Below, in pieces: positions 7,451 to 39,709 of a DNA stretch of 64,000 bases; the stretch's first letter is position 1; each line of letters opens with the position of its first letter. The notes beneath the pieces are model-generated. The model did no database searches. It worked only from the letters and a program-made list of their open reading frames with translations, and was not told the DNA's origin. Origin of the DNA: Candidatus Omnitrophota bacterium (GTDB lineage: Bacteria; Acidobacteriota; Aminicenantia; UBA2199); assembly GCA_050258455.1 (NCBI GenBank), contig JBLMYT010000114.1:55995-119994 (forward strand). Reading direction: 5' to 3'. The position numbers and the translations under genes were made by a program.

Positions 7451-7476
7451 GTAGGGGCAGACCCGCGTGTCTGCCC
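7451..7476. repeat. REP-like palindromic element GTAGGGGCAGACCCGCGTGTCTGCCC. It belongs to the same family as the elements at 9862, 21784/21815, 25409 and 36805.
   Basis: An 8-bp stem GGGCAGAC/GTCTGCCC is preceded by GTAG. Near-identical sequences are found elsewhere in the window in both orientations. Confidence 0.6.
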
Positions 7477-7510: not shown

Positions 7511-7596
7511 TTTTGAAAAGGTCGTTCGGAAAAGGATTTTAGGGCGGCTCGCGAGCCGCCCCTAATTCACGCGTTACGCAGATTTCCCCTTATTTT

Positions 7597-9857: not shown

Positions 9858-9861
9858 TATC

Positions 9862-9887
9862 GGGCGCACACACGGGTGCGCCCCTAC
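9862..9887. repeat. REP-like palindrome GGGCGCACACACGGGTGCGCCCCTAC. The 28-mer at 9861-9888 is identical to 36804-36831, which lies inside the NRPS CDS.
   Basis: It sits in the convergent intergenic region between the FlhB-like gene and pilR. The stem is GGGCGCAC/GTGCGCCC. Confidence 0.65.
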
Positions 9888-9896
9888 GGAATTGGC

Positions 9897-21783: not shown

Positions 21784-21836
21784 GGGCGATTCGCGAATCG
21801 CCCCTACCAAAATTGGGGCGCACCGCGGTGCGCCCC
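21784..21836. repeat. Two adjacent REP-like palindromes (GGGCGATTCGCGAATCGCCCCTAC and GGGGCGCACCGCGGTGCGCCCC) in a convergent intergenic region
   Basis: They are perfect 10-bp and 9-bp stems. The second is a variant of the GGGCGCAC..GTGCGCCC family. Confidence 0.6.
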
Positions 21837-21871
21837 GATAAACTATTCTTTAATCCTATTACTTCCAACGA

Positions 21872-23974: not shown

Positions 23975-24121
23975 TTATTTTAAAAGTGGGGACTATTGGT
24001 TTCATTTGAGCTCTCCCAAAACAAAGACAAAATTTAAATTTATGATAGACGTATAGAAGCGTTGGCAGAAGCTGCCATCGTTCAAACAATCGATTATTCA
24101 GACAAGATAAGGAGTGATACC

Positions 24122-27100
24122 ATGTACAGGAGTGGTCTATCCGATTTCGATCGGTTATGGATTGCTGCAGGAAAAAAGGCCAAAGAAAAACAATATTGGA
24201 CCGAAAAATTATCCGGAAAATTGTCAACCAGTCGTTTTCCATATTCTCATTTTCATAAAGACGTAATTACCGAAAACTTATATAGCCATTCGGTTTACCT
24301 CGGTTTTGATGAGCATATATCTTCGCAATTGGTAAAATGGAGTGCGAATTCCGATATCCGCCTTCACATTATATTAAGCGCCGTACTGACACTTTTACTC
24401 TCAAAATATACGGGTAATGAGGATATCATTATGGGTACGCCGGTTTCTCACGGAGGACACGGAGAAACAAATGAAGATGCGGCTGTTATCAATACGGTCT
24501 TGGCATTACGTCATCAACTGAATGGTGAAATGCCGTTCAAGGAATTGCTGTTCCAGGTCAGACAAACCATCATTGAAGCGGATGAAAACCAGAATTATCC
24601 GTTTGAAGTATTGGTCAGGCAATTGGAAACGCCGTTTTCAGAGGAGGGGTGTCCCCTTTTCGATGTCGCGGTGGTATTGGAAAACATTCAGAATAAAGAG
24701 CATCTTTCAGCAATTAATCCAAAAGTCATCTTTTCGTTTTTACGGATTGAAAAACATATTGAAGGCAAAATAATATATAACACGCATTTTTATCATCGGC
24801 AGATGATTGAACGCATTGCCCTTCATTTTGGGCATATTGTGGAAATCATATTATCCGATCCCAATAGGAAGATATCGGAGATCGAGGTCATCACCGAAAA
24901 TGAAAAGAGACAATTATTAAATGATTTTAACAATACGGCGGCGGAATATCCGAAAGATAAAACCATTCATGAATTATTTGAAGATCAGGCAGAGAAAACG
25001 CCGGATCATATAGCAGTTATAGGTTCAATTTCTGTGCGGGCGCTTCGCCAATTATCCCTACAAATTTCCTATCGACAACTGAATGAACGATCCGAACAAT
25101 TGGCGAATAAATTAATCCAAGAAAACGTTCAACCCGATATTATTGTGGGTATAAAGATCGGGCGCTCGGTTGAGATGATTATCGGAATTTTGGGAATATT
25201 AAAAGCAGGTGGCGCATATTTACCCATTGATCCGGATTACCCGCAGGAACGGATTGATTATATGGTAAAGGATAGTGGTGCGGCATTGTTGGTTACCACC
25301 AACCATGAAGAAGGTGAGAAGTTAAGAAGTTGGGAAGTTAAGAAAGTGCTCTTTTTAGATCCTCTTAATCTCTCAGCTTCTCAACCTCTTAACTTCTCTT
25401 TAAATTCCGTAGGGGCAGATCCGTGTATCTGCCCGAGTACTTCTCTATTACCGGTAATCGGTAACCGGCCACTGGCCACTTCTCTCGCTTATGTTATTTA
25501 TACCTCCGGTTCAACCGGAAGTCCCAAAGGAGTAATGGTCGAGCATCGAAACGTTATTCGTTTAGTGAAAAATACGAATTTCATTGATTTTCAACCCGAA
25601 GATCGATTATTACAAACCGGGGCATTGGCGTTTGATGCCTCCACGTTTGAAATATGGGGCGCGTTGTTAAATGGTCTTAGCCTTCATCTGATGGATAAAG
25701 AAGACGTATTGAACCCGGATAAATTAAAGAAGCGCATGATTGAGCATCAAATCACCATCATGTGGATGACATCCCCGTTCTTTAATCAGATGGTGCAAAG
25801 TAATGAAGAAATCTTTGGACCTCTTCGTTATTTATTGGTTGGGGGCGATGTCTTATCCCCGTCGCATATCGATCGGGTACGAAAGCGGTTTCCCGGTTTG
25901 AGGGTTGTTAATGGTTATGGGCCGACCGAGAATACGACTTTTTCCACCACGTTTTTGATCGATAAGGATGATGAGGAAAAGATTCCCATCGGTAAACCCA
26001 TTGCCAATTCAACCGCTTATGTTGTGGATAGACATGGAGCTCTGCAACCGGTCGGAATTGCCGGAGAATTGTGGGTTGGAGGGGACGGTGTATCCCGCGG
26101 GTATTTAAACAACCCGGAATTGACGGCCCAGAAATTTTCCTCTGTGCCCTCCGTGACCTCTGTGGCTAAAAATTTATACAAAACCGGGGACCTGTGCCAG
26201 TGGATGGAGGACGGCAATATCGAATTCTTGGGTCGCATCGATCAGCAGGTAAAGATCAGAGGATTTCGCATTGAATTGGAAGAAATCGAGCATCGATTAT
26301 TGAAGCATCCGGCCATTCAAGACGCTGTCATTGTTGTGAAACACGATAAATATAAAAACAAGTATCTCTGCGCTTATATTGTTTCAAAAGATCCCTGTGA
26401 TCCCGCCCAATTAAGAGAATACCTAATAAAATATTTACCGGATTACATGATCCCGTCCCATTTCGGGCTCATAGAGAAAATACCGCTAACTCCGAATGGT
26501 AAAGTCGACCGGAAAGCATTACCCGAAATAAAGGTGAAAACAGGCCCGGATTATGTTGGGGCCGGGGATACGATCGAAGAAAAATTGTCAGCCATATGGT
26601 CCGATGTTCTGGAAATCGAAAAAAACGCCATTGGGATTCATGACAATTTTTTCAATCTGGGTGGACATTCCTTAAAGGCCGTTCGATTAATTTCTGAAAT
26701 TCATAACCAACTAAGTGTCAAATTATCCCTAACGGAAATATTCGCCTTTCCAACGGTAAAGGATTTGGCCGGGTATATAAGGGGCGCGCGCAGAAATGAA
26801 TATGCAATGATCGAGACGGTGGAAGAAAGAGAATACTATGACGTGGCCCAGGCCCAGGAACGGTTATGGATATTGGATCAGGTCCAAACGGAACTGACCG
26901 CTTACAATATTCCCGGTTATGTGGTATTCGAAAATTTGAATCGCAACGCTCTTCAACAGGCATTCGAATCGTTAATAAAACGCCATGAAATTTTGAGGAC
27001 CACGTTTATCACCGTAAATGGGGAACTCAAACAAAAAGTGCATGATTTTAAAAATCATGATATCCGGATAAATTATCTCGATTTGAGAAGAGAAGAAAAA

Positions 27101-28213
27101 AGAGGAGCCATCGTTGAAAGCTTAAAAGAAAAAGAAATGAGTACACCGTTTAACCTGGAAAAAGGTCCCTTATTAAGGAGCACATTGCTCCATGTCGAAG
27201 ATCATCGGTATATATTTTTATATACCCTGCATCATATTATTTCGGATGGATGGTCGATGGATATCCTACAAACGGAATTTATGACCCTTTATCAAGCGTA
27301 TTGCAGCGGTCAAGAGAACCCCTTGCCACCCCTTCGGATTCAATACAAAGATTACACCTACTGGCAGATGAAGCAATTGGCCGGCGAAAACTTAAAAAAC
27401 CACGAAGATTATTGGTTGAACCGGTTTAATGGCGACCTACCGGTTCTGGAACTGCCCCTCGATTACCCTCGCTCGGAACTACGGTCATTTGCGGGCGAAT
27501 TTATCCTATTTTCGTTAAGTAAGGAAATGACCGGACACTTAAAACGGATGTGCAATGAATTGGGCACCACTCTGTTTATCATCTTGCTGGCAATGGTAAA
27601 GGTTTTCTTGTATCGATATACAGGCCAAACGGACATTATTGTTGGAACTCCGGTTGCCGGTAGAGACCATAAAGACCTGGAAAATCAAATCGGTTTTTAT
27701 GTAAACATGTTGGCATTAAGAAATCAACTAACCAAAGGTCAGAGTTTCAGAGACGTTTTGGAAATGGTTAAACGCAGTACCCTGGAAGCCTTTGAACACC
27801 AGGTCTATCCCTTTGACCGTCTGGTTCATGAGTTAAAGGCCGTAAAGGATCTGAGTCGTCATCCCTTGTTTGATGTGGTGGTAATTTTAAGAAACCCCAT
27901 GAACGCGCCGGAACAAGTAAACCTGAGGACATTGCCGGAAGCAAATAGAGACGACGAATGGGTTGAAAACGGAGTAGAGGCCAGTAAGTTTGATTTAGGC
28001 TTAGGCTTCACCGACCAGGGCGATCAAATCATTGCCCATTTCAGATACAATGCGCAATTATTTAAAAGAGAACGAATCATGCTTATACGGGAACGGTTTA
28101 TCGGGTTGATGACAGATATTGTTTCCCATCTGGATAAAGAAATAGATGACCTCATGTTTACGTCTGAAGCAGAGAAAGGAAAACCGAAAAACAAATTTAA
28201 AGGAGGATTTTAA
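24122..28213 (+). CDS. NRPS 1 (one module): orphan C-domain C-lobe, then A, PCP and a complete C domain
   Basis: The ATG at 24122 follows AAGGAG at 24108-24113. The A-domain cores present are A1 ISYRQLNERSEQLA, A2 LKAGGAYLPIDPDYP, A3 LAYVIYTSGSTGSPKGV, A5 NGYGPTE, A6 GELWVGGDGVSRGYL, A7 YKTGD, A8 GRIDQQVKIRGFRIELEEIE and A10 NGKVDRKALPE. The PCP motif is LGGHSLKAV. The C domain carries HHIISDGWS. The stop is 3 nt before NRPS 2. Confidence 0.9.
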   Translation: MYRSGLSDFDRLWIAAGKKAKEKQYWTEKLSGKLSTSRFPYSHFHKDVITENLYSHSVYLGFDEHISSQLVKWSANSDIRLHIILSAVLTLLLSKYTGNEDIIMGTPVSHGGHGETNEDAAVINTVLALRHQLNGEMPFKELLFQVRQTIIEADENQNYPFEVLVRQLETPFSEEGCPLFDVAVVLENIQNKEHLSAINPKVIFSFLRIEKHIEGKIIYNTHFYHRQMIERIALHFGHIVEIILSDPNRKISEIEVITENEKRQLLNDFNNTAAEYPKDKTIHELFEDQAEKTPDHIAVIGSISVRALRQLSLQISYRQLNERSEQLANKLIQENVQPDIIVGIKIGRSVEMIIGILGILKAGGAYLPIDPDYPQERIDYMVKDSGAALLVTTNHEEGEKLRSWEVKKVLFLDPLNLSASQPLNFSLNSVGADPCICPSTSLLPVIGNRPLATSLAYVIYTSGSTGSPKGVMVEHRNVIRLVKNTNFIDFQPEDRLLQTGALAFDASTFEIWGALLNGLSLHLMDKEDVLNPDKLKKRMIEHQITIMWMTSPFFNQMVQSNEEIFGPLRYLLVGGDVLSPSHIDRVRKRFPGLRVVNGYGPTENTTFSTTFLIDKDDEEKIPIGKPIANSTAYVVDRHGALQPVGIAGELWVGGDGVSRGYLNNPELTAQKFSSVPSVTSVAKNLYKTGDLCQWMEDGNIEFLGRIDQQVKIRGFRIELEEIEHRLLKHPAIQDAVIVVKHDKYKNKYLCAYIVSKDPCDPAQLREYLIKYLPDYMIPSHFGLIEKIPLTPNGKVDRKALPEIKVKTGPDYVGAGDTIEEKLSAIWSDVLEIEKNAIGIHDNFFNLGGHSLKAVRLISEIHNQLSVKLSLTEIFAFPTVKDLAGYIRGARRNEYAMIETVEEREYYDVAQAQERLWILDQVQTELTAYNIPGYVVFENLNRNALQQAFESLIKRHEILRTTFITVNGELKQKVHDFKNHDIRINYLDLRREEKRGAIVESLKEKEMSTPFNLEKGPLLRSTLLHVEDHRYIFLYTLHHIISDGWSMDILQTEFMTLYQAYCSGQENPLPPLRIQYKDYTYWQMKQLAGENLKNHEDYWLNRFNGDLPVLELPLDYPRSELRSFAGEFILFSLSKEMTGHLKRMCNELGTTLFIILLAMVKVFLYRYTGQTDIIVGTPVAGRDHKDLENQIGFYVNMLALRNQLTKGQSFRDVLEMVKRSTLEAFEHQVYPFDRLVHELKAVKDLSRHPLFDVVVILRNPMNAPEQVNLRTLPEANRDDEWVENGVEASKFDLGLGFTDQGDQIIAHFRYNAQLFKRERIMLIRERFIGLMTDIVSHLDKEIDDLMFTSEAEKGKPKNKFKGGF
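25321..25440. repeat. MITE/REP-like element embedded in frame in the NRPS-1 A-domain A2-A3 loop. The left end GTTAAGAAGTTGGGAAGTTAAGAAAG is identical to 36739-36764, and the internal palindrome GTAGGGGCAGATCCGTGTATCTGCCC is at 25409-25434.
   Basis: The left terminus is an identical 26-mer shared with the second copy. Imperfect terminal inverted repeats are present (GAAGTTAAGAA ... TCTTAACTTC). The encoded peptide, LRSWEVKKVLFLDPLNLSASQPLNFSLNSVGADPCICPSTSLL, is low-complexity and unlike canonical A-domain sequence. Confidence 0.55.
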
Positions 28214-28216
28214 TCA

Positions 28217-31200
28217 ATGGCGGTCGACATCCACACCCTCGCTCTATACAACACATGTGAGGATTATTGGCTTAAAACACTGAATGGCGTAACGCTTACC
28301 CCTATTTTTGGGGATCAAAGTAATAACGGTATTAGCACCCGCGATTCATGGCGTGTGGCATTTCCTCCCGGCCTGTCAGATTCTATTCACTCCATGGTCC
28401 GGGGGGAAGATACCAATGCTTTTTTGATTTTTCTTACAGCGTTTAATATTTTAATATATAAATATACCCACGCGGATGATATATTAATCCATACCCCGGA
28501 TTTCCGGGATGAAGAATCTAAAAATTCCGAAGATGCAATGCTTTTCTTCCGTACCCATCCGGGTGAGGATCAAATCATTCGTGATTTATTAAACCAATTC
28601 CTTTCCGAATTAAACGGGGCCTATGAAAATCATCAATTCCTTTATGAATCATTGCTCAGACGTTTTAATGATAACCAAAATGGAGACGTTAACGCCTTAT
28701 CCGCTTTTGGTTTGCGGTATAACCGATTTAATCTGGAAAGCTTGCGGATGGAAGCAAGTCATTTGTTTTTTTCAATCGAGCAACGCGATCATGGCATCGA
28801 TCTTTTGATTCACTATCATACCTGTTCCTACACCTCGGATCAAATTGCTCAATTGGCACGGCATTATATCCATATCTTGGCCTCGATGGTGTCAAATTTG
28901 GACACCCCGCTTCATGCCATCGGTATATTTTCGCCGGAGGACAAACAAAAATTAATGGAGTTTATCGGAGAAGAAATCGAGGCCCCGGAGGAGGGGAAAA
29001 CATTTTTGGCCCGATTCGAACGCCAGGTTGAAGACTCGCCCCAATCTCCCGCCTTAGCCTGCGGGCCCGTGACATTGAGTTACCGGGCGTTAAATGAAAG
29101 GGCCAATCAACTGGCCCGACGATTACGTCACGAGGCTCCCCTCGCCAACGATGATTCCGTGGCCCTGGTGATGGACCGATCCCCAAAGATGGTGGAGAGC
29201 ATTCTGGCCGTATGGAAATGCGGGGCCGCTTATATCCCCATCGATCCGTCGTATCCCCAGGAGCGAATCGACACGATTATCAACGACTCCGGCGCCAAAT
29301 TGATGATTCGTGAAACGGGTAATATTTCATTTAAAGTGGAACAAACCCTGAAACCGGCAACCAGGGTCATTTACCTGGATCAAATCGAAAATGACCGCTT
29401 ACATGAGGATAAGACCAACCTTTGCGTTCCCCGACATCCCGGGGATCTGGCTTATATTATTTATACATCAGGCTCCACGGGTAAACCCAAAGGCGTCATG
29501 ATCGAACAGCGAGGCATGATGAATCATCTTCATGCCAAGATTTCGGAAATCCAAATCGATGCGACAAGCGTGATTGCTCAAAATGCCTCACACTGTTTCG
29601 ATATCTCCGTCTGGCAATTTTTCGCTGCCCTGTTGGTCGGCGGTAAAACAATTATTTATTCTGACCAGGCCGTGTTAAACCCCACGGCGTTTACCCGACA
29701 GTTGGCTGAGGATGGGGTTAATATATTGGAGGTCGTGCCATCCTATTTGTCAGTAATATTAGATCTAATCGAAGATCAGCAGACAGGCGATGCACTCGCC
29801 GGGTGTCGCTGCTTGTTGGTCACGGGCGAAAGCGTGAAGCCCGGCCTCGTGAACCGGTGGTTCAAAACATTTCCGGGTATACGAATGGTGAATGCTTATG
29901 GCCCCACCGAAGCATCCGACGACATCACCCATTTCGTGATGGACCGGTTCCCCGGGACCGGAAATATCCCAATCGGTAAAACGCTTCGTAACTTTCGTAT
30001 TTACATCGTAAATTCGCGTATGGAGCTATGTCCCGTCGGTGTGAAAGGTGAAATTCTCGTATCGGGACTCGGCGTCGGACGGGGGTATCTGAATGACATA
30101 AAAAAGACCACGGACGCCTTTATGGAAGATCCCTTTCGGCCGGAACGGGGTTTTCGGTTGTACAAAACCGGTGATATCGGACGCTATTTACCTGACGGCA
30201 ATATCGAATTTTTTGGCAGAAAAGATTACCAGGTGAAAGTCCGGGGTTATCGAATCGAGCTCGAAGAGATCGAGAATAAATTATCCCGCCTTGACGGAAT
30301 CCGGGATGCGGCAGTCGTTGAGAAAGACAGTAAAAATAAAGGCGACGGCATGTATTTGTGCGCTTATATCACGCTGCGCGATGGCGTCCGGACACGGACG
30401 GAAGAGATTAAAACCGAATTGGCCCGGACGCTTCCCCATTACATGATCCCGGCCTTTATTGTTGTGCTCGACGCCTTGCCATTGACCCCCAACGGCAAAT
30501 TGGACCGCAAGGCATTACCGGATCCGGATGAATCCGGAATCGGGGACGTCGCGTATGTGGCGCCCCGCAATGCCATTGAAATCAAGTTGGCGGAGATATG
30601 GCGACAGGTCATCGGAGTGGAGCAGATCGGCATTCACGATAACTTTTTTGCGTTGGGAGGAAATTCATTACTGGGAATTCGGATTGTGAACAAAATTCAG
30701 GAATGGTTGCACGAAACCGTTCATGTCACCATCCTCTTTTTGGCCCCGACGATTGAGCAGTTGGCGGTGAAACTGGAGAGTTACCGGCAGGAAAAAGAGA
30801 CCCGAATCAATGAGGCGGATATCGCGGAACTTCGGTCTCTCATGCCTCCCTTGCCCCCTCTGCCTTCCCATTTGGTTCGCCCGGGTAAAACCCCTCCGGT
30901 CCTGTTCATTTTGTGTCCGCCCCGGTCCGGTTCCACGTTGTTAAGGGTTATATTGGCCGGCCATCCCGGGTTATTTGCGCCACAGGAGTTGCAATTGCTG
31001 TCCTTCAATACGCTGACGGAGCGAAAAGCGGCCCTTTCCGGGACCTACAGCCTTTACCTGGAGGGAGTGATCCGGGCCATCATGGAGATGAAGGCGATTG
31101 GTGCGGACCAGGCCAAACAGATCATGGAAGCATTTGAAGCCCAGGGGATGACGGTGCAGGAGTTTTACGGCATCCTTCAGCATTGGCTGGGGGAAACGAT

Positions 31201-34200
31201 GCTGGTAGAGAAAACCCCGCAATATGCTTACGATATCAATGTCCTGCAACGGGCGGAAGCGTATTTTGATTCCGCCCTTTACATTCATCTGGTTCGAAAC
31301 CCCTATGCGGTGATTCATTCGTACGAAAACGCGCGGTTGGACCAATTGTTTGAATATCCCCACCGTTTTTCGACTCGGGAATTGGCCGAATTGTTGTGGG
31401 TCATTTGCAACCAGAATATCTTGCAGTTCCTGGAGACAATCCCTGCCGGACGGAAATACCGGATGGAGTATGAAGAATTGGTTGGAAACCCGGAATCGGT
31501 GGTATCCCGCATGTGCGAGCACTTCGGTTTGGAATTTGACCGGGGAATGCTGGATGTATATGATGATGCCGGCCACCGGATGACGGACGGTATCTATGCC
31601 GAATCAAAGATGCTCGGAGATGTCAAATTCTTCAGCCATACGTCCATTGACACGACGTCCGTGGAGAAGTGGAAGGAGAAATATACAACCGAATTTTTGG
31701 GACAAACCGCCGTGGATTTGGCGAAATATTTTGGGTATTTGAGGGGACGCCATGAATACCCGACGATTGAACCGGCACCTGAGAAAGAGTATTATGAATT
31801 ATCGCCAGCCCAAAGACGATTATGGTTATTGGACCGGCTGGTGGAGAACCAGATTGCCTATAACATGCCGGGGGCCTATTGGGTGGAAGGGAATTTACAC
31901 ATCGATGTATTGGAAAAATCGTATGCGGCAGCAATTAAGCGACATGAAATATTGAGAACCACGTTTGTATCCGTGGAAGGCCCCCCCCGGCAAAAAATTC
32001 ACGCTTTTGAAGCGATGGGGTACCGGTTGGATTATCTGGATCTAAGAACGGATCCGGGTCGGGAAGAAACGGCAGCGTATCTGATCCGGGAAGAAGCCGC
32101 CAAACCGTTCAATCTGGAACAGGGACCTTTAATCCGGACCCGGTTGATTCATATGGATGCCAATCGGTATATATTTTTATTTAACATGCATCACATTATT
32201 TCGGATGGGTGGTCGATGCATGGATTAATGAAGGAAATCATCGCATATTATGACGCCTATGCCACGAACAGTGCGGAGTCTCTTGAGCCGTTGCGATTGC
32301 AATATAAAGATTATTCGGAGTGGATGACTCGTGAATCCACGCAGCGGGTCCTTCAACAACAGGAAAAATATTGGCTCGACCAATTTGCAGAAGACATCCC
32401 GGTCTTAAGTTTACCCACCGATTACGCGCGACCGGCAATCATGAGTTTTGAAGGACATACTGTCAACTTTGATTTTACGGCCCAGGAAACAGGGGAATTG
32501 ACCAAAGTGGCCCGGTCCGAGGGAGTTACTTTATTTATTTTATTAATTTCCATTTTCAATGTATTTTTGTCTAAAGTCAGCGGTGAGGAGGATATAATTA
32601 TCGGAACGCCCGTTGCTGGCCGGAATCATCCGGATCTGGAACACATCCTTGGGATGTTTGTCAACACATTGGCGCTGCGCAACTATCCTCGGGGAGAAAT
32701 GACCTTTATCCGGTTTCTTCATCACCTGAAAACCCTGATGTTAGAGGCCTTTGAGAATCAGGATTACCCCTTTGAAACCCTGGTTGAAAAATTGGAAATA
32801 ACGCGCGACACGAGTCGTAATCCACTCTTCGACGTCATGTTTACCATTCAGGATATTTATGAATCGGACAGGGGCTTGAATCAATTCAGCGACCTGAAAA
32901 TAAAACCCTATGCCTTCGACCATCGAATATCCAAATTTGATTTGTTACTCGCCACATTTGAAACCGATGGAAGGGTCTGTTTTGTCTTTGAGTATTGTAC
33001 GGCGTTGTTCCGGGAGGGCACCATCCAAAGATTTATTCAGTACGTGAAAGCCATTGCCCGGTCGATTATTCAAGACCCTGCGATCCGAATATCCGATATG
33101 GAGATCATAACCCCGGAGGAAAAGCGACAAATTATTTCGGATTTTAATCGTACGCAAGCTGCTTATCCATCGGATAAAACGATCGAAATGTTGTTTGAAG
33201 ACCAGGTGAAAAAAACGCCTGATTGCATTGCGGTTATCGGTTCCACGGTATCGCTCCCCAAACCCGTAGAAACGTTGTGTACAGCGTTCCTTCACCTAAC
33301 GTATAAAGAATTGAATGAACGATCCGATCGATTGGCGTATGAATTAATACAAAAAGGCGTTGAGCCGGATGCCATTGTCGGCATAAAAATCGAACGTTCC
33401 ATTCAAATGATTATCGGGATTTTTGCCATTTTGAAAGCAGGTGGCGCTTATCTTCCCATCGATCCGGATTACCCCCAGGAACGCATCGAATACATGTTAA
33501 AGGATAGCCAGGCGCATTTATTGGTAACTCATTGTTTAGGGGCAGCCCCATGCATTGGCCCGGGTGTTATTAACCCGGAACTTCCCTCCGTACCCGCTGT
33601 GTCCGCCGTGAGAGAAAAATCAAATCTTGCCTATGTCATTTACACTTCCGGTTCAACGGGAATGCCCAAAGGGGTCGTGGTCAAAAGGGAAGGATTTTTA
33701 AATTTACTCTATTGGTACATCAACGAATTTAATATAAATCCAAACGATAACGTTTTACTCATTGCATCGGTGAGTTTTGATTTGGCGCAAAAAAACGTAT
33801 TTAGTTCTTTTATGGTCGGCGGATGTTTGACTTTAGCCTCCCCTGGGCTCCCGGATTATTCAACGCTCTCGAAGCTTATCCAAAAAGCGCCAATCACCCT
33901 GATCAATTGTGCGCCCAGTGTCTTTTATCCATTGGTAGAATTTAATCGGAATTCGGGTTTTACGGATTTAAACACATTGCGATGGGTCATTCTCGGTGGT
34001 GAACCGATTTTAATCGAAAAGCTTTTACCCTGGATGGATTCCGAATCGTATCGATGTCAGATTGCCAACACGTATGGGCCGACCGAATGCACAGACATTG
34101 CCTCTTGTTACCGCATTCCCAATGAAAAAATTCGGGATTTAAAATCAATACCCATCGGAAAACCCGTTTCCAATGTAGCGGTTTATATATTGGGTAAATA

Positions 34201-37200
34201 CCGGGAGATACTCCCGGTGGGTGTGGTCGGGGAATTGTATATCGGGGGGATCGGGGTATCCCAGGGGTATTATAACAACAGGCAATTAACGGAGGAGAAA
34301 TTTTTGGAATTATCCCATTTACCGGAATCGAAAATATACCGGACCGGGGATATGGGGCGATGGTTGGACGATGGAAATATTGAGTTTTTAGGGCGAGTCG
34401 ATGATCAGGTTAAAATAAATGGCATGAGAATCGAGCTGGGAGAAATCGAGCATGTATTGTTGAGTCATAACGAGATTAAGGATGCGGTTGTTATTGTCCA
34501 TAAAAAAGAAAAGACGGATTACTATTTATGTGCCTACATCATTTCGCATAAGAATTTATCGATAGCAGATATACAGGAATATTTATCGTATCGTTTACCT
34601 CAATATATGATACCAACCCACTTTATTCAGCTCGAGCACATACCGTTAACACCCAGTGGAAAAGTAGATAAACGGTCTTTGCCTGATCCTGAAATGGGGT
34701 CTACACGGTCGTACATTGCGCCCGAAAATGCAGTGGAAAAAGAAATGGTGAAAATTTGGGCAGAAGTTCTGGGAATGGCAAAAGATCGAATCAGTATGGA
34801 TGATAATTTTTTCCAATTGGGGGGACATTCTATAAAAGCATCGTTATTGGTATCCCAAATTCGTAAAGCATTTGATGTGAATATTTCACTATCGGATATA
34901 TTCCGGATTTCCACGGTTCGGGGATTATCTCATCAAATTAAAGGATCGGTTAAGGAAAAATACCTTTCGATACCCCCTGCTGAGAAGAAAGAATACTATG
35001 AGTTATCTTCGGCACAAAGGCGCTTATACATTTTACACCAGATGGATGAAAAGGGGATCAATTACAATATTTCGTCTGTGTTTCTATTGGAAGGGGAGAT
35101 TGATAAAGATAGATTTGAGGGGACGTTTAGGCAGCTTATCGATCGGCATGAGAGTTTGCGAACATCATTTCCGATGGTCGGTAATGAACCGATGCAGCGA
35201 ATTCATGATGATGTTGAATTTGAAATTAATTATTTAGCCACAGAGTTCACAGGGGACACAGAGGGGGAAGGGAAGAAGGTAAGTGGAATAGAGAATTTTA
35301 TTAAATTTTTCGATTTATCTAAAGCGCCATTGATGCGTGTGGAATTGATGAGAGTCGACGATAACACGCATCTTCTTGCAGTGGGCATGCATCATATTAT
35401 TTCGGATGGAACTTCCATGAATATTGTGGTGCAAGATTTCATGGCGTTTTATAAGGGTGAAGAATTGCCGGAAGTACAAATTCAGTATAGGGATTTTTCA
35501 GAGTGGCAGAAACGGGAAAATCAAAAAGAATTGCGAAAGCAGCAAGAGGCGTTCTGGTTAAACGAATTTGAAGGGGAAATACCGGTATTGGATCTTCCGG
35601 CGGATTTTTTAAGGCCTTCGATTCAGAGTTTTGAAGGAAGACGGGTCCAATTTGAACTGGATAAAGAAACCACCGGATTATTGAAAGCGTTGGCGTTGGA
35701 GACTGGTGCCACTTTATATATGATGCTTTTGGCTTTATACAACGTGTTTTTATCTAAAATCTGTAATCAGGAGGATATTGTTATCGGTTCGCCGATTGCG
35801 GGGAGAAGTCATTCTGATTTAGAGAAAGTTGTCGGAATGTTTGTCAATACATTGGCCTTACGGAATTATCCGATAGGAGAAAAAGTATTTACTGATTTTT
35901 TGGAGGAAGTAAAAGGAAACATCTTAAGAGATTTTGAAAATCAGGAATATCCTTATGAAGAATTGGTGGAACGGGTGTTGGTAAACAGGGACACCGGTCG
36001 GAATCCGTTATTTGACACCATGTTTGTGTTACAGAATGCGGATATGCAATCGTTGGCGATTCCCGGACTGGTATTAACTCCTTATGAATATGAGAATCAC
36101 GTATCCAAGTTTGATTTGACATTATCCGCAATAGAAAAAGAAGATCGTTTATGTTTTACATTTGAATACAGCACGAAGCTATTTAAGCGTGAAACGATTG
36201 AGCGATTCATTTCATATTTTAAGAACATCGTTAACGGTGTTATTGAGAATAGAGCTCGAACCCTTTCGAATTTTGAGATTATTACGGAAGAAGAGAAGAA
36301 TCATCTGTTATATGATTTTAATCATACAGAGGTCGAATATACGAAAGATAAGACCATTCAACAATTATTTGAAGAGCGGGCATGCCGGGGATGGGATAGG
36401 ATTGCATTGGTCGGCGCTATTTCCGGTATAGGGGCAGCCTCAGGTGTCTGCCCTCAATTATCTTACGCTGAATTGAATGAACGATCGAATCGATTCGCCT
36501 ATGAGTTAATCCAAAAAGGCGTTGGACCCGATGTGATTGTGGGGATAAAAATCGAACGGTCTATTGAAATGATCATCGGTATTCTGGGAGTTTTGAAAGC
36601 CGGCGGCGCGTATTTACCGATTGACCCCGGTTTGCCGCAGGAACGGGTCGATTATATGTTAAATGATAGTAGAGCTAAATTTATTTTTCTCACGGAGCAC
36701 ACAGGGGACACGGGGGGGAGTGGTGTAGAAGTTGAGACGTTAAGAAGTTGGGAAGTTAAGAAAGCGGTCTTTTTAGATCCTTTTAACCTCTCAGTTTGTC
36801 CAGCGGGCGCACACACGGGTGCGCCCCTACGTAATTCCGAATCAATTTCCCTTTTAGATCAACTTAACCTCTCATCTTCTCAACCTCTTAACTTCTTCCC
36901 TTCCTCCGTGCCCCCCGTGTCCTCCGTGAGAAATCATTCAAATCTTGCTTATATCATTTACACATCCGGTTCCACCGGGAAACCTAAAGGCGTATTCATT
37001 CGCCATTCGAATATCTGTCCGTTGCTGCATTGGGGATACGAGCATTTGGCGTTGACGAGCGATGACCGTTCGGTTCAGAATTTATCCTATTATTTCGATT
37101 GGTCCGTATGGGAGATATTTATTGCATTAACGTCCGGGGCCGGTCTTCACATGGTATCCAATGAACTGATCATGGATGGGGTGAGTTATGCCGATTACAT

Positions 37201-39709
37201 GAACCGTTATGGAATTACAGTATTGCATATTACGCCCACGCATTTTCAGGCGCTCATTTTTTCGGGGAAGCGTTTACCGTCATTGCGTCATTTGTGTTTT
37301 GGCGCCGAAAAGCTTGCCCATGATTTGGTGGAGAAGAGCATTGAGGTTATCGAACCTCAATGCCGAATCTATAACATGTATGGTCCCACCGAAGCCACGA
37401 TTATGGCAGCGGTATTAACGATCGATCGGTCCAGGTTACCGTTTTACAGTCAGTTGTCCGGTGTTCCGATCGGAGAAAATCTGGGAAATAATGTCCTTTT
37501 CATATTGGACAGAAGTTTTAACTTGTGTCCGATCCATATCTTTGGCGAATTATACATCGGCGGTGACGGCGTTTCACCGGGATACTTAAACAACCCCGAA
37601 TTAACAGTTAAACGGTTTATCTCCGTGACCTCCGTGCGCTCCGTGAGAGACAAATTATATAAAACCGGGGATTTATGTCGATGGTTGGATGATGGAACCA
37701 TTGAGTTTTTGCATCGCATGGATGAGCAGGTTAAGATCAGGGGATTTCGCATTGAGTTGGGGGAGATTGAAAGTCGTTTATTAACGTGTGATCACATCAA
37801 AGAAGCCGTCGTCATTGTGAGAGAAAAGACGAGCGGCGACAAATATCTGGCTGCGTATGTGGTTTCGGATATTGAACTTTCGGAATCCGAATTAAACGAT
37901 TATTTATTAAAGACATTACCGGACTATATGGTCCCTTCTTCTTTTACGCAATTGGAAAAAATTCCGTTAAATCCCAATGGAAAATTGGACCGCAAAGCAT
38001 TACCTGAACCAGAGTGGAAAGGGGAGACCGGTTATGCGGCCCCGCAAAATGCTACGCAAGTCAAACTGGTAGAGATATGGTCCGATATCTTAAATGTCGA
38101 AGAAAATTCTATTGGCATAGACACCAATTTCTTTCAATTGGGAGGGCATTCATTGAAAGCAGTCCTCTTGCTTTCCAAAATCCATCAAGCGTTGAGTGTC
38201 AAACTCCCATTTATTCAACTCTTTAAAACCCCAACCATCAGAGAATTGTCCTCATATATAAAAGGGATGACGAAAGCGAAGGCGGAAGTCATTGAACCGG
38301 TGGAACAAAAAGAATATTACCGGCTGTCATCGGCTCAGAAACGGATTTTCTTCATGCAGCAATTGGATCCGGCCAGTACCACCTATAATATCCCGCAGGC
38401 CAATCTCATTCGCGGGCAATTGGACCTGGTCTTATTGGACTCCACCTTTTACCGTTTGTTGCAACGCCATGAGAGTTTGAGAACGTCGTTTGAGATGATC
38501 CATGAAGAACCGGCGCAACGCATTCATCCCGACGTGAGATTTAATATTGAATATTCTACCGGTAAACCCGGGCTTGGGAGCCCGGGTACCGGAGAACCGG
38601 TTGAGGATTTCACCCCTTACCTCGAAGGTTTTGTCAAACCCTTTGATTTGAGCCAAGCGCCCTTAATCCGGGTTAAAGTGGTCGAAATCGAGCGATTCAC
38701 GCATATCCTGCTGATCGATGTCCATCATATCGTCACCGATGGGGTATCCAATGGGATACTACTCAGGGATTTCGATTTTCTGTATCGGAATAAAGGCGCA
38801 GAATTACCGGAGTTACGGATCCAGTACAAAGAATATGCCGAATGGCAAGGCCGCAAGGATCAAAGACAAAGGTTAACGCAGCAGGAAAATTACTGGTTGC
38901 ATCAATTGGGGCACGGTATTCCGGTTCTTGATATTCCGACCGATTATCCCCGGCCGACCCCCCGAAGTCTAAAAGGCGATGCGATCCGGTGGGATATCGA
39001 TGAAACTTTGTCTGCCCGTATTCGGGCGTTCGTAAGCGATGTCGGTTGCACGTTAAATATTTTCTTCCTGGCTGTCCATCAGGTGCTATTGGCAAAATAT
39101 TCGAACCAAGAAGATATTATTGTCGGAACCGTATCCGCTGGCCGGCGACATGCCGATTTGGAACATACCGTTGGAATGTTTATCAACATGTTGGCTATCC
39201 GCAACCAGCCGTATAAAGAGAAAGTATTTAAAGACTTTTTGTTGGAAGTCAAACAACGGTCGATCGATGCGTATGAAAACCAGGATTACCAATTCGATGA
39301 CCTGGTCTTAAAATTGGGATTACAAAGGGCTCAGGACCGCACCCCCATATTTGAGACGGTATTTGTGGTTCAGAATCTTGAAATGGGGCACTCCCTTAAA
39401 CAGGACGGTCTCACCGCATCAGAGGAAATCAGTGTGTTGGAAATTCCCAGGAGCCAGTTGGAAAGCCAATACTATGATTTGATCTTTCAAGCCGAGGAAA
39501 GGCCGGACGTCATCAAAATGGTGCTGCTGTATGCCACGGCCCTATTCAAACGCTCCACTGCCGAATGGATCCAAAAACACTTTATGGACATTTTGGCCCA
39601 GGTGGTCAAACAACCGGATTTAAAATTAATGGATATTGAGATCACCCAACAATTTTTGAAAGCCGATTCCAACGTGATTAAAGATCAGCCATCGGATTTT
39701 CGATTTTAG
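28217..39709 (+). CDS. NRPS 2 (three modules): orphan C-lobe, then A-PCP-sulfotransferase, C-A-PCP, C-A-PCP and a final C
   Basis: There are three complete A domains, with A3 cores LAYIIYTSGSTGKPKGV, LAYVIYTSGSTGMPKGV and LAYIIYTSGSTGKPKGVF. The three PCPs are LGGNSLLG, LGGHSIKAS and LGGHSLKAV. The three C domains carry HHIISDGWS, HHIISDGTS and HHIVTDGVS. An embedded sulfotransferase domain has a 5'-PSB-like motif CPPRSGSTLL and a 3'-PB-like motif RNPYAVIHS. The RBS AGGAGGA lies inside the end of NRPS 1. The protein is 3830 aa. Confidence 0.9.
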   Translation: MAVDIHTLALYNTCEDYWLKTLNGVTLTPIFGDQSNNGISTRDSWRVAFPPGLSDSIHSMVRGEDTNAFLIFLTAFNILIYKYTHADDILIHTPDFRDEESKNSEDAMLFFRTHPGEDQIIRDLLNQFLSELNGAYENHQFLYESLLRRFNDNQNGDVNALSAFGLRYNRFNLESLRMEASHLFFSIEQRDHGIDLLIHYHTCSYTSDQIAQLARHYIHILASMVSNLDTPLHAIGIFSPEDKQKLMEFIGEEIEAPEEGKTFLARFERQVEDSPQSPALACGPVTLSYRALNERANQLARRLRHEAPLANDDSVALVMDRSPKMVESILAVWKCGAAYIPIDPSYPQERIDTIINDSGAKLMIRETGNISFKVEQTLKPATRVIYLDQIENDRLHEDKTNLCVPRHPGDLAYIIYTSGSTGKPKGVMIEQRGMMNHLHAKISEIQIDATSVIAQNASHCFDISVWQFFAALLVGGKTIIYSDQAVLNPTAFTRQLAEDGVNILEVVPSYLSVILDLIEDQQTGDALAGCRCLLVTGESVKPGLVNRWFKTFPGIRMVNAYGPTEASDDITHFVMDRFPGTGNIPIGKTLRNFRIYIVNSRMELCPVGVKGEILVSGLGVGRGYLNDIKKTTDAFMEDPFRPERGFRLYKTGDIGRYLPDGNIEFFGRKDYQVKVRGYRIELEEIENKLSRLDGIRDAAVVEKDSKNKGDGMYLCAYITLRDGVRTRTEEIKTELARTLPHYMIPAFIVVLDALPLTPNGKLDRKALPDPDESGIGDVAYVAPRNAIEIKLAEIWRQVIGVEQIGIHDNFFALGGNSLLGIRIVNKIQEWLHETVHVTILFLAPTIEQLAVKLESYRQEKETRINEADIAELRSLMPPLPPLPSHLVRPGKTPPVLFILCPPRSGSTLLRVILAGHPGLFAPQELQLLSFNTLTERKAALSGTYSLYLEGVIRAIMEMKAIGADQAKQIMEAFEAQGMTVQEFYGILQHWLGETMLVEKTPQYAYDINVLQRAEAYFDSALYIHLVRNPYAVIHSYENARLDQLFEYPHRFSTRELAELLWVICNQNILQFLETIPAGRKYRMEYEELVGNPESVVSRMCEHFGLEFDRGMLDVYDDAGHRMTDGIYAESKMLGDVKFFSHTSIDTTSVEKWKEKYTTEFLGQTAVDLAKYFGYLRGRHEYPTIEPAPEKEYYELSPAQRRLWLLDRLVENQIAYNMPGAYWVEGNLHIDVLEKSYAAAIKRHEILRTTFVSVEGPPRQKIHAFEAMGYRLDYLDLRTDPGREETAAYLIREEAAKPFNLEQGPLIRTRLIHMDANRYIFLFNMHHIISDGWSMHGLMKEIIAYYDAYATNSAESLEPLRLQYKDYSEWMTRESTQRVLQQQEKYWLDQFAEDIPVLSLPTDYARPAIMSFEGHTVNFDFTAQETGELTKVARSEGVTLFILLISIFNVFLSKVSGEEDIIIGTPVAGRNHPDLEHILGMFVNTLALRNYPRGEMTFIRFLHHLKTLMLEAFENQDYPFETLVEKLEITRDTSRNPLFDVMFTIQDIYESDRGLNQFSDLKIKPYAFDHRISKFDLLLATFETDGRVCFVFEYCTALFREGTIQRFIQYVKAIARSIIQDPAIRISDMEIITPEEKRQIISDFNRTQAAYPSDKTIEMLFEDQVKKTPDCIAVIGSTVSLPKPVETLCTAFLHLTYKELNERSDRLAYELIQKGVEPDAIVGIKIERSIQMIIGIFAILKAGGAYLPIDPDYPQERIEYMLKDSQAHLLVTHCLGAAPCIGPGVINPELPSVPAVSAVREKSNLAYVIYTSGSTGMPKGVVVKREGFLNLLYWYINEFNINPNDNVLLIASVSFDLAQKNVFSSFMVGGCLTLASPGLPDYSTLSKLIQKAPITLINCAPSVFYPLVEFNRNSGFTDLNTLRWVILGGEPILIEKLLPWMDSESYRCQIANTYGPTECTDIASCYRIPNEKIRDLKSIPIGKPVSNVAVYILGKYREILPVGVVGELYIGGIGVSQGYYNNRQLTEEKFLELSHLPESKIYRTGDMGRWLDDGNIEFLGRVDDQVKINGMRIELGEIEHVLLSHNEIKDAVVIVHKKEKTDYYLCAYIISHKNLSIADIQEYLSYRLPQYMIPTHFIQLEHIPLTPSGKVDKRSLPDPEMGSTRSYIAPENAVEKEMVKIWAEVLGMAKDRISMDDNFFQLGGHSIKASLLVSQIRKAFDVNISLSDIFRISTVRGLSHQIKGSVKEKYLSIPPAEKKEYYELSSAQRRLYILHQMDEKGINYNISSVFLLEGEIDKDRFEGTFRQLIDRHESLRTSFPMVGNEPMQRIHDDVEFEINYLATEFTGDTEGEGKKVSGIENFIKFFDLSKAPLMRVELMRVDDNTHLLAVGMHHIISDGTSMNIVVQDFMAFYKGEELPEVQIQYRDFSEWQKRENQKELRKQQEAFWLNEFEGEIPVLDLPADFLRPSIQSFEGRRVQFELDKETTGLLKALALETGATLYMMLLALYNVFLSKICNQEDIVIGSPIAGRSHSDLEKVVGMFVNTLALRNYPIGEKVFTDFLEEVKGNILRDFENQEYPYEELVERVLVNRDTGRNPLFDTMFVLQNADMQSLAIPGLVLTPYEYENHVSKFDLTLSAIEKEDRLCFTFEYSTKLFKRETIERFISYFKNIVNGVIENRARTLSNFEIITEEEKNHLLYDFNHTEVEYTKDKTIQQLFEERACRGWDRIALVGAISGIGAASGVCPQLSYAELNERSNRFAYELIQKGVGPDVIVGIKIERSIEMIIGILGVLKAGGAYLPIDPGLPQERVDYMLNDSRAKFIFLTEHTGDTGGSGVEVETLRSWEVKKAVFLDPFNLSVCPAGAHTGAPLRNSESISLLDQLNLSSSQPLNFFPSSVPPVSSVRNHSNLAYIIYTSGSTGKPKGVFIRHSNICPLLHWGYEHLALTSDDRSVQNLSYYFDWSVWEIFIALTSGAGLHMVSNELIMDGVSYADYMNRYGITVLHITPTHFQALIFSGKRLPSLRHLCFGAEKLAHDLVEKSIEVIEPQCRIYNMYGPTEATIMAAVLTIDRSRLPFYSQLSGVPIGENLGNNVLFILDRSFNLCPIHIFGELYIGGDGVSPGYLNNPELTVKRFISVTSVRSVRDKLYKTGDLCRWLDDGTIEFLHRMDEQVKIRGFRIELGEIESRLLTCDHIKEAVVIVREKTSGDKYLAAYVVSDIELSESELNDYLLKTLPDYMVPSSFTQLEKIPLNPNGKLDRKALPEPEWKGETGYAAPQNATQVKLVEIWSDILNVEENSIGIDTNFFQLGGHSLKAVLLLSKIHQALSVKLPFIQLFKTPTIRELSSYIKGMTKAKAEVIEPVEQKEYYRLSSAQKRIFFMQQLDPASTTYNIPQANLIRGQLDLVLLDSTFYRLLQRHESLRTSFEMIHEEPAQRIHPDVRFNIEYSTGKPGLGSPGTGEPVEDFTPYLEGFVKPFDLSQAPLIRVKVVEIERFTHILLIDVHHIVTDGVSNGILLRDFDFLYRNKGAELPELRIQYKEYAEWQGRKDQRQRLTQQENYWLHQLGHGIPVLDIPTDYPRPTPRSLKGDAIRWDIDETLSARIRAFVSDVGCTLNIFFLAVHQVLLAKYSNQEDIIVGTVSAGRRHADLEHTVGMFINMLAIRNQPYKEKVFKDFLLEVKQRSIDAYENQDYQFDDLVLKLGLQRAQDRTPIFETVFVVQNLEMGHSLKQDGLTASEEISVLEIPRSQLESQYYDLIFQAEERPDVIKMVLLYATALFKRSTAEWIQKHFMDILAQVVKQPDLKLMDIEITQQFLKADSNVIKDQPSDFRF
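36739..36950. repeat. Second, longer copy of the MITE/REP-like element, in frame in the A2-A3 loop of NRPS-2 module 3. It contains the palindrome GGGCGCACACACGGGTGCGCCCCTAC at 36805-36830 and a duplicated TTTTAGATC..CTTAACCTCTCA segment.
   Basis: The 26-mer at 36739-36764 is identical to 25321-25346, and the 28-mer at 36804-36831 is identical to intergenic 9861-9888. A repeated segment (CTTTTTAGATCCTTTTAACCTCTCAG ... CCTTTTAGATCAACTTAACCTCTCAT) flanks the palindrome and resembles a target duplication. Translation stays in frame as VCPAGAHTGAPLRNSES. Confidence 0.55.

Follow-up and report, generated by a model that had tools for sequence, protein, structure and literature searches.

How do palindromic DNA repeats come to lie in frame inside the adenylation (A) domains of nonribosomal peptide synthetases (NRPSs), and do they arrive there as one mobile unit or as several? 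This question is raised by a 64,000-nucleotide stretch of contig JBLMYT010000114.1 (the window), from a Candidatus Omnitrophota bacterium assigned by GTDB to the Aminicenantia of the Acidobacteriota, in which two NRPS genes carry repeat-rich blocks in the loop between the core motifs A2 and A3. An earlier note on this DNA took each block for a copy of a single miniature inverted-repeat transposable element (MITE), bounded by terminal inverted repeats (TIRs), that had colonised permissive loops of NRPS genes without breaking them. We consider it likely that several mutually independent short hairpin repeats lie nested in the A2-A3 loops of three A domains, in place of one MITE. The locus is a new example of a known phenomenon, the in-frame insertion of repetitive extragenic palindromes (REPs), and not a new kind of element.

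A palindrome dispersed within and between genes

The palindrome has the general form GTAG-GGGCNNAY-CCGYGT-RTNNGCCC (26 nt), with a foot (GTAG), an 8-bp GC stem (GGGCNNAY) and a loop (CCGYGT). Scanning the window for GTAGGGGC-N(10-24)-GCCC returned exactly five sites against 0.05 expected from shuffles, and a stricter scan for GTAG-tagged perfect GC hairpins returned six against 0.16. In all five copies GTAG is followed by a perfect GC-rich stem of 8-10 bp, in keeping with REPs, which carry GT[AG]G at the foot of a GC-rich stem-loop of 20-40 nt. The sites reported in the earlier note, three between convergent genes and two in coding DNA, hold at every coordinate, and a decayed copy can be added to them, so that five copies and one remnant are dispersed over the 64 kb:

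7451..7476, forward strand: intergenic GTAG REP GTAGGGGCAGACCCGCGTGTCTGCCC, between convergent genes
9862..9887, reverse strand: intergenic GTAG REP GTAGGGGCGCACCCGTGTGTGCGCCC, between a 108-aa open reading frame (ORF; forward) and pilR (reverse)
21784..21807, reverse strand: intergenic GTAG REP variant GTAGGGGCGATTCGCGAATCGCCC, with a perfect 10-bp stem
25409..25434, forward strand: in-frame GTAG REP GTAGGGGCAGATCCGTGTATCTGCCC in NRPS1, encoding VGADPCICP
33536..33561, forward strand: decayed REP tTAGGGGCAGCCCCATGCATTGGCCC in the A2-A3 loop of NRPS2 module 2, encoding LGAAPCIGP, hairpin lost
36805..36830, reverse strand: in-frame GTAG REP in NRPS2 module 3, in reverse orientation, encoding GAHTGAPL(R)

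The intergenic copies lie between convergent ORFs in three of three cases. The 28-mer at 36804-36831 in module 3 is identical to that at 9861-9888, as first reported, and the identity extends no further on either side. The decayed copy in module 2 agrees with the 25409 copy at 20 of 26 positions (manual count) and is read in the same frame. Two intergenic copies have loose partners, namely a related hairpin with a CTAA tail at 7543-7566 for the 7451 copy and an untagged GC hairpin at 21816-21838, the next after the 21784 copy; these are the only pairs in the window, and the coding copies are single, although short palindromes run on from the 25409 REP up to position 25483. Five of the six reading frames of the REP are free of stop codons, so the chief requirement for an insert is a length divisible by three. 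A further GTAG-tagged perfect hairpin, GTAGGGTTTCCCGGGGAAACC at 40966-40986, lies in frame within a stand-alone radical S-adenosylmethionine (SAM) gene and may represent a different REP type or have arisen by chance.

The same hairpin in other genomes and in transposase genes

Scanning one genome per species with GTAGGGGCRSAYCCGYGTRTSYGCCC returned at least 115 loci (L001-L115) with 137 matches. With foot and loop conserved, the 26-nt hairpin is thus found in about 20 phylum-level groups, which by record title include Chloroflexota, several groups of Deltaproteobacteria, Clostridia/Ruminococcus, Bacteroidales, Cyanobacteriota, Acidobacteriota, Nitrospinota, Latescibacterota and others. Compensating stem variants occur among the 137 matches (GCGGAC/GTCCGC, GCAGAC/GTCTGC and GCGCAC/GTGCGC), and an inverted second copy often adjoins the hairpin in these genomes, as in REP doublets forming hairpins (REPINs). 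To judge from these matches, such conservation across phyla is unusually strong for a REP. A literature search for the hairpin sequence found nothing beyond unrelated primer matches, and no paper quoting it.

Four of these loci (L056, L074, L096 and L108) contain ORFs with the HuH motif MPNH[IF]H, and WQ and YIxNNP were also seen in the stretch read of the L056 and L074 ORFs; HuH, WQ and YIxNNP are the signature of TnpA-Y1 subclass 2.4, to which REP-associated tyrosine transposases (RAYTs) of this type belong (PMC6006769). The hairpin lies in frame just past the HuH motif in L056, L074 and L096, and the L108 ORF shows a REP-like peptide only. The intergenic REP at 7451 agrees base for base with the copy of Latescibacterota locus L074, whose host ORF shows NHIH, WQ and YIxNNP, motifs of subclass 2.4. 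With the L074 protein as query, a homology search yielded at least 7,898 relatives, and most of the subclass 2.4 RAYT transposases sampled contain the hairpin in frame, where it encodes VGADxxxCP and GxHxGxPL, peptides of the same types as the NRPS inserts VGADPCICP and GAHTGAPLR. Pfam Y1_Tnp scored above its gathering threshold for two of the four RAYT-like ORFs and matched nothing in the other two, and the NCBIfam REP_Tyr_transpos matches were all below cutoff. We attribute these weak scores to REP inserts that split the profiles, and the RAYT assignment consequently rests on motifs and on the published description.

In that description, Quentin et al. report in-frame REPs within the transposase gene as unique to subclass 2.4, and REPs also in unrelated genes (PMC6006769). 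Di Nocera et al. describe REPs between convergent genes and list intragenic GTAG REPs in many genes, among them a REP dimer within the Pseudomonas syringae NRPS Psyr_1958 (PMC3733652). With such cases already catalogued, the rarity that the earlier note saw in an in-frame insertion into a biosynthetic enzyme does not stand. Judged by its foot, stem and loop and by the genes that share it, the palindrome is a GTAG-tagged REP of the type associated with subclass 2.4 RAYTs (Bertels group 4).

Some further occurrences of the REP may be recorded here. Its hosts also include gut Ruminococcus and Phocaeicola. In a metagenome-assembled genome (MAG) of Shackletoniella antarctica (L035, 2140-2510), four REP copies spaced 69, 138 and 138 nt apart lie within a tandem repeat; a CRISPR reading of this locus was rejected, since the intervening sequence is itself repeated and is thus a tandem array rather than spacers. 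Among viral IMG/VR contigs (L241-L259), the REP pattern occurs in 14 stretches and the pattern of the octamer repeat described below in 5, small numbers that possibly represent prophage or host-derived DNA.

Octanucleotide arrays and the architecture of the loops

Both blocks lie between core A2 (LKAGGAYLPID; 25199-25231 in NRPS1, 36593-36625 in module 3 of NRPS2) and core A3 (LAYxIYTSGSTG; 25484-25531 and 36944-36991, respectively), and they are in frame within the uninterrupted ORFs of NRPS1 (24062-28213, 4.1 kb) and NRPS2 (28217-39709, 11.5 kb), just as the earlier note placed them. Around the REPs they are built as follows:

25309..25346, forward strand: NRPS1 5' octamer array, about 4.5 units of GAAGKTRA, encoding EGEKLRSWEVKK, 88% identical to the module 3 copy
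25347..25362, forward strand: NRPS1 spacer between the arms of the array hairpin, encoding the beta-strand VLFLD, as in ordinary A domains (alignment)
25363..25398, forward strand: NRPS1 3' complementary array of TYAMCTTC units, encoding PLNLSASQPLNFS
36686..36716, forward strand: module 3 outer inverted repeat, 5' arm TTTCTCACGGAGCACACAGGGGACACGGGGG, 87% complementary to 36903-36933
36727..36764, forward strand: module 3 5' octamer array, encoding VEVETLRSWEVKK and holding the 26-mer shared with NRPS1
36771..36851, forward strand: module 3 insertion unit of 81 nt (27 codons), comprising a 24-nt duplicated stretch and a 57-nt REP-bearing piece
36852..36902, forward strand: module 3 3' complementary octamer array, encoding LLDQLNLSSSQPLNFF, 91% identical to 25353-25397
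36903..36933, forward strand: module 3 outer inverted repeat, 3' arm CCTCCGTGCCCCCCGTGTCCTCCGTGAGAAA, encoding SSVPPVSSVRN

The 26-mer GTTAAGAAGTTGGGAAGTTAAGAAAG, which the earlier note took for a TIR, occurs in the window only at 25321 and 36739, with none expected. Its periodicity of 8 nt, however, marks it as part of a run of tandem octanucleotides, (GAAGKTRA)n, which is followed downstream by the complementary array: the sequence of the 5' arm is GAAGGTGA GAAGTTAA GAAGTTGG GAAGTTAA GAAAG. The imperfect inversion described by the note is real, with 25309-25343 pairing with 25363-25397 (77-86% complementary) in NRPS1 and the inner arms 36727-36760 and 36863-36896 pairing at 82% in module 3. 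Units of 8 nt give a period of 24 nt and 8 residues (EGEKVRSW). In a perfect GAAGGTGA array, each frame of that strand would meet a TGA at 24-nt intervals; the coding arrays carry a TTGG or GTGG unit, read as Trp, and they stay readable because this one unit has TGG in place of TGA.

In module 3 the 24-nt segment TTTTAGATC..CTCTCAG is duplicated at 36771 and 36852, a spacing of 81 nt (27 codons), which bears out the duplication seen earlier. An alignment of the A domains shows this 81-nt piece and the outer 5' arm in module 3 only, and the REP-bearing tail in NRPS1 only. A homologous outer 3' arm lies without a partner in module 2, at about 33586-33612. The outer inverted repeat has one 19-nt relative in the window by a 13-mer scan, which otherwise gave three isolated single matches in other loci: the 19-mer TTTCTCACGGAGGACACGG at 24444-24462, in frame in the first condensation (C) domain of NRPS1, matches the reverse strand of 36915-36933 at every base. 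On this evidence the 19-mer and the outer inverted repeat are a third short repeat family inside these NRPS genes; its 12-mer core GGACACGGGGGG has no match in 240 loci. In the module 2 A domain (33431-33673), about 35 residues separate the LLVT strand from core A3, and the usual vvxLD strand is missing, with the decayed REP in its place.

The arrays also occur elsewhere. The closest homologues of these A domains come from Acidobacteriota and Aminicenantes MAGs at only about 59-64% protein identity, and in three other assemblies the same array stands at the equivalent A2-A3 site and in the same frame, with no REP in that loop:

P0004/L116 (Acidobacteriota MAG): array peptide EGEKVRRWEGENV, both arms present, no REP
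P0022/L117 (Aminicenantes MAG): array peptide EGEKVRSWEGEKV, 3' arm replaced by CATCATT repeats
L163, domain 1 (metagenome contig): array peptide SEKVRSWEGEKV, CATCATT repeats in place of the 3' arm

In a metagenome scan, AGAAGKTGGGAAGKTRAGAA was found in at least 120 contigs (L118-L237) with 137 matches, only one of which has an A-domain context, most lying in short stop-free stretches. An inverted complementary array lies within 250 nt of 23 of 117 arrays, against none in shuffles (16-of-20 threshold). REPs and arrays scarcely co-occur (0 of 115 REP loci and 3 of 120 array loci). From this distribution, the octamer arms are an independent and widespread repeat, and in this A-domain clade the arrays are, by the same comparison, older than the REPs. 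Literature searches for octamer arrays or arrays of the short tandemly repeated repetitive (STRR) type, and for Aminicenantes NRPSs, found nothing relevant, and the array family appears to be undescribed. Two side observations concern these arrays. Those of the (GAGAAGGT)n type in metagenomes are often long and adjoin the simple repeats CGGAAGTCGGAATGCGGAAG and GGGCAGAGGGCATAGCGCAT (e.g., L120 5627-9967, L123 6295-6434 and L215). In the second A domain of L163 (5039-5170), another inverted octamer pair, (GAAGAGCG)n / (CGCTTCCT)n, surrounds the strand codons FDIIFID, so that the arrangement of array, strand and complementary array recurs with unrelated units.

One composite element, or paralogy without mobility

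These comparisons bear first on the proposal of one composite MITE, with the octamer arms as TIRs around an internal palindrome, moved whole into two A domains. In both coding copies a palindrome does accompany the same 26-mer and an inverted arm, and their arms are 88-91% similar against 73% for flanking DNA. The parts, however, occur independently: arms stand without a loop palindrome at the same site in L116, L117 and L163, palindromes stand without arms at the three intergenic sites and in at least 115 loci elsewhere, and the two families scarcely meet. The two coding palindromes moreover differ in stem sequence, orientation and place relative to the arms, which indicates that each was inserted separately into an array already present. 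The arms consist of 8-nt units in tandem and are not TIRs of the transposase type, the whole block is found only in two paralogous A domains, and no target-site duplication flanks it; the 24-nt duplication in module 3 flanks the 57-nt REP-bearing piece and is too long for a classical one. A single composite element is, therefore, very unlikely. What stands of the mobile element proposed in the earlier note is a REP of a presumed-mobile type in a permissive loop of an unbroken gene; what does not is its unity.

The same data can be set against the opposite proposal, that nothing moved and that the blocks go back solely to duplicated A-domain modules and to gene conversion among these paralogues. 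All three A domains are indeed paralogous, at 73-77% nucleotide identity, and the arrays occupy the same site and frame in each as well as in the homologues from other assemblies, which fits inheritance of the arrays. Paralogy does not explain why the module 3 28-mer has an exact intergenic match 27 kb away, by pilR, why the hairpin recurs at two further intergenic sites, or why the REPs of NRPS1 and module 3 are opposite in orientation and at non-homologous positions; and octamer arrays of the same sequence are dispersed over at least 120 non-NRPS contigs. Confinement to the two A domains, which the earlier note had itself named as a point to be checked, is thus not what was found for either repeat. 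The note had also asked whether homologous A domains of unrelated taxa carry the same peptide stretch: the arm peptide EGEKVRSWEGEKV does recur in homologous A domains, but in related assemblies and not in unrelated taxa. We regard an origin without any mobility as improbable.

To an assembly or sequencing artefact that placed repeat sequence inside the NRPS genes we give next to no credence. Repeats can mislead metagenome assemblers, and many of the homologous contigs are short; yet the frames are open across ORFs of 4.1 kb and 11.5 kb, the same architecture is present in four independent assemblies, and the decayed module 2 copy shows evolution in place.

A permissive loop

Interruptions of A domains have been documented in the a2-a3 interval, as well as in a6-a7 and a8-a9 (PMC8341866). 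Over the insert region Pfam reports only AMP-binding, with no folded auxiliary domain. In an AlphaFold model of the NRPS1 A core (mean pLDDT, the per-residue confidence, 86.7; predicted template modelling score 0.89), the native strand VLFL is retained at residues 123-126 (block 121-130, mean pLDDT about 82), the 10-residue blocks over residues 131-160 have a pLDDT of 48-58, and the REP residues 144-153 fall below 50. The inserts are most likely translated as disordered surface loops without a catalytic role.

In NRPS3, also in the window, the interval between A2 and A3 holds a radical SAM/B12 module. In this gene (41458-48195) A2 is at 42490-42519 and A3 at 44356-44388, the interruption of about 600 aa comprises Radical_SAM and B12-binding domains, and a second insertion, a ThiF domain, precedes the carrier domain; just upstream of NRPS3 there is a stand-alone gene of the B12/radical SAM type (39745-41433). 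The survey of interrupted A domains names only class I methyltransferase interruptions, and no radical SAM (PMC8341866).

Repeats are not restricted to one loop of these enzymes. In the related NRPS of L163, in-frame REPs occupy a different variable loop, the one that immediately precedes core A1, and P0021 (peptide VGAGPRVCP) apparently has a REP in frame in the same place. The A2-A3 loops of many close A domains from Acidobacteriota, Aminicenantes and Deferrimicrobium (P0001-P0120) are repeat-like, with HHSSFIIHHSSHSS, SEIRISKSETNPNDQNINDQN and IVNYRLSMS, and such peptides suggest that the A2-A3 loop may be a general sink for simple repeats in this clade. A targeting of short-period tandem arrays by REPs was also considered and dropped: of the 125 REPs compared from other genomes, 6.4% lie within 70 nt of an array with a 6-9 nt period, and random positions do so at a rate of 2.8% (p = 0.03), a weak enrichment over a control not matched for intergenic location.

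The hairpins could instead be kept for a function, either as pause sites in translation or transcription that aid the folding of the megasynthase, or as recombination points at which modules or subdomains are exchanged. The DNA folds are strong (z of about -6: -6.1 for the NRPS1 block and -6.2 for the whole 261-nt region of module 3), against +0.1 for the unmodified loop of module 1. The arms co-vary between genomes, with GTTAAGA/TCTTAAC in the window and GGTGAGA/TCTTACC in L116, and in L163 that beta-strand is flanked by another inverted pair of octamers. However, the hairpin is not a conserved feature, given the swap of the 3' arm for CATCATT repeats in L117 and L163 domain 1; no such structure is present in module 1 or in most homologues, the module 2 REP no longer pairs, and template switching could also produce co-variation of arrays without selection. 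Retention for function is, in our view, decidedly unlikely. A self-splicing intron or other known structured RNA was set aside as well, with no curated Rfam family at the sites: an Rfam scan of the whole window at gathering thresholds had no match at the repeats, its sole match being a tRNA at 498-570. That tRNA lies inside a listed ORF (438-1130) whose bactofilin domain begins at residue 84, and the true start of the bactofilin gene is probably downstream of the tRNA.

A probable layered origin of the repeats

We therefore return to a nest of independent repeats, in which three layers may be distinguished. In the first, a RAYT enzyme would copy the REP via single-stranded DNA, as is thought to happen in characterised systems. 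Intergenic copies would persist, whereas genic copies would persist only if they preserve the frame and add residues that do no harm; such a survivorship filter is the simplest reading of REPs in these loops. Three copies of different age would then survive in A2-A3 loops. The 36805 copy, identical over 28 nt to the intergenic copy adjoining pilR, would be recent, as that identity implies; the 25409 copy has a different stem variant and still pairs perfectly; and the 33536 copy is decayed, its pairing gone. Such a gradation is consistent with REPs that arrived repeatedly and then decayed, constrained at the protein level only. The second layer would be the older inverted pair of octamer arrays around the native strand codons VLFLD, most likely inherited by this A-domain clade and its paralogous modules from a common ancestor. 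The third would be the further inverted repeat of CACGGRG-type units that encloses the module 3 copy.

Several observations weigh against this model. Most REPs in the window are singles, unlike the inverted doublets typical of REPINs. No RAYT gene or Y1 transposase was found in the 64 kb; a cognate RAYT, if present in the genome, would lie beyond it, and transposition is suggested by family membership. We infer the translation of the inserts from open frames. PilB of the window is 89-94% identical to database proteins, several of them labelled Candidatus Aminicenantes or Acidobacteriota, and three Aminicenantes relatives identified through PilB (91-92% identity) were compared in search of an empty site: in their 58 kb there was no REP of this type and no array, and synteny ended exactly after pilR, at the REP site, so that no clean empty site was obtained. 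The absence of the REP from these relatives fits the patchy distribution that has been reported for RAYTs (PMC6006769). Finally, these sequences are compatible with repeated insertion of the arrays as well as with inheritance: the arrays are 88-91% alike against 73% for the flanking A-domain DNA, and later homogenisation or later arrival could account for this higher similarity.

A bolder proposal is that the A2-A3 and pre-A1 loops of Aminicenantes and Acidobacteriota NRPSs are recurrent sinks for at least three hairpin-repeat families, and that these repeats drive recombination or pace translation. We hold this to be a long shot; if it were true, near-identical repeats would provide microhomology or hairpin-induced breaks for recombination of modules or subdomains.

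Relation to known repeats and insertions

The nearest known system is that of the GTAG REPs and REPINs of RAYT subclass 2.4, with which the palindrome shares its GTAG foot, its GC-rich hairpin, its dispersal between convergent genes and its in-frame insertion into unrelated genes, including the P. syringae NRPS (PMC6006769, PMC3733652). Unlike GTAG REPINs, the window copies are mostly singles, and no cognate RAYT was seen with them; and unlike in known REPs, three insertions of different age lie in the same loop of paralogous A domains, atop another repeat. Bacterial MITEs (Nezha, Correia/NEMIS, RUP and ERIC) are likewise small, non-coding, hairpin-forming and sometimes intragenic. They have TIRs of 15-30 bp that match an insertion sequence transposase and usually a target-site duplication, whereas here the supposed TIRs consist of tandemly arrayed 8-nt units that are found by themselves as well, and the block as a whole does not recur as a unit.

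Cyanobacterial STRR heptamer arrays and small dispersed repeats have reportedly been described by Mazel (1990) and Elhai (2008). The octamer arrays resemble STRRs as short-period (7-8 nt) dispersed tandem arrays that sometimes host nested hairpin repeats, and differ from them in their 8-nt unit, their sequence, their Aminicenantes/Acidobacteriota host and their in-frame position within coding DNA. The Rickettsia palindromic elements (RPEs) were reportedly described by Ogata et al. in 2000, and PMC3733652 cites them as its refs 13 and 14. RPEs, too, are short palindromic repeats in frame in functional genes, tolerated in surface segments, and the likeness drawn here is one of behaviour (in-frame palindromic insertion). 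RPE-1 are longer palindromic inserts, and the intragenic RPE-4 and RPE-6 of R. conorii have been counted among CGTC repeats (PMC3733652).

Interrupted A domains share the a2-a3 insertion point and an A domain that is intact around the insert (PMC8341866). Known interruptions are folded methyltransferases of 260-390 aa (PMC8341866), whereas the loop here holds about 30-50 aa that stem from DNA repeats, of low complexity and modelled with low confidence.

Significance

These findings leave the current understanding of REPs and of NRPSs unchanged. Their residual interest lies in the piling up of repeats of three families in the same loop of paralogous A domains, and in an octamer-array family that seems not to have been described before. 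Peptides such as VGADPCICP, GAHTGAPLR and EGEKVRSWEGEKV in Acidobacteriota A domains derive from DNA repeats and represent neither specificity-conferring residues nor new domains, and such repeat-derived stretches affect the prediction of A-domain substrates, the calling of module boundaries and engineering. The A2-A3 loop accepts 30-50 extra residues of arbitrary sequence, which supports its use as an insertion site in engineering, and the in-frame survival of subclass 2.4-type REPs is extended to a new phylum and to biosynthetic megasynthases.

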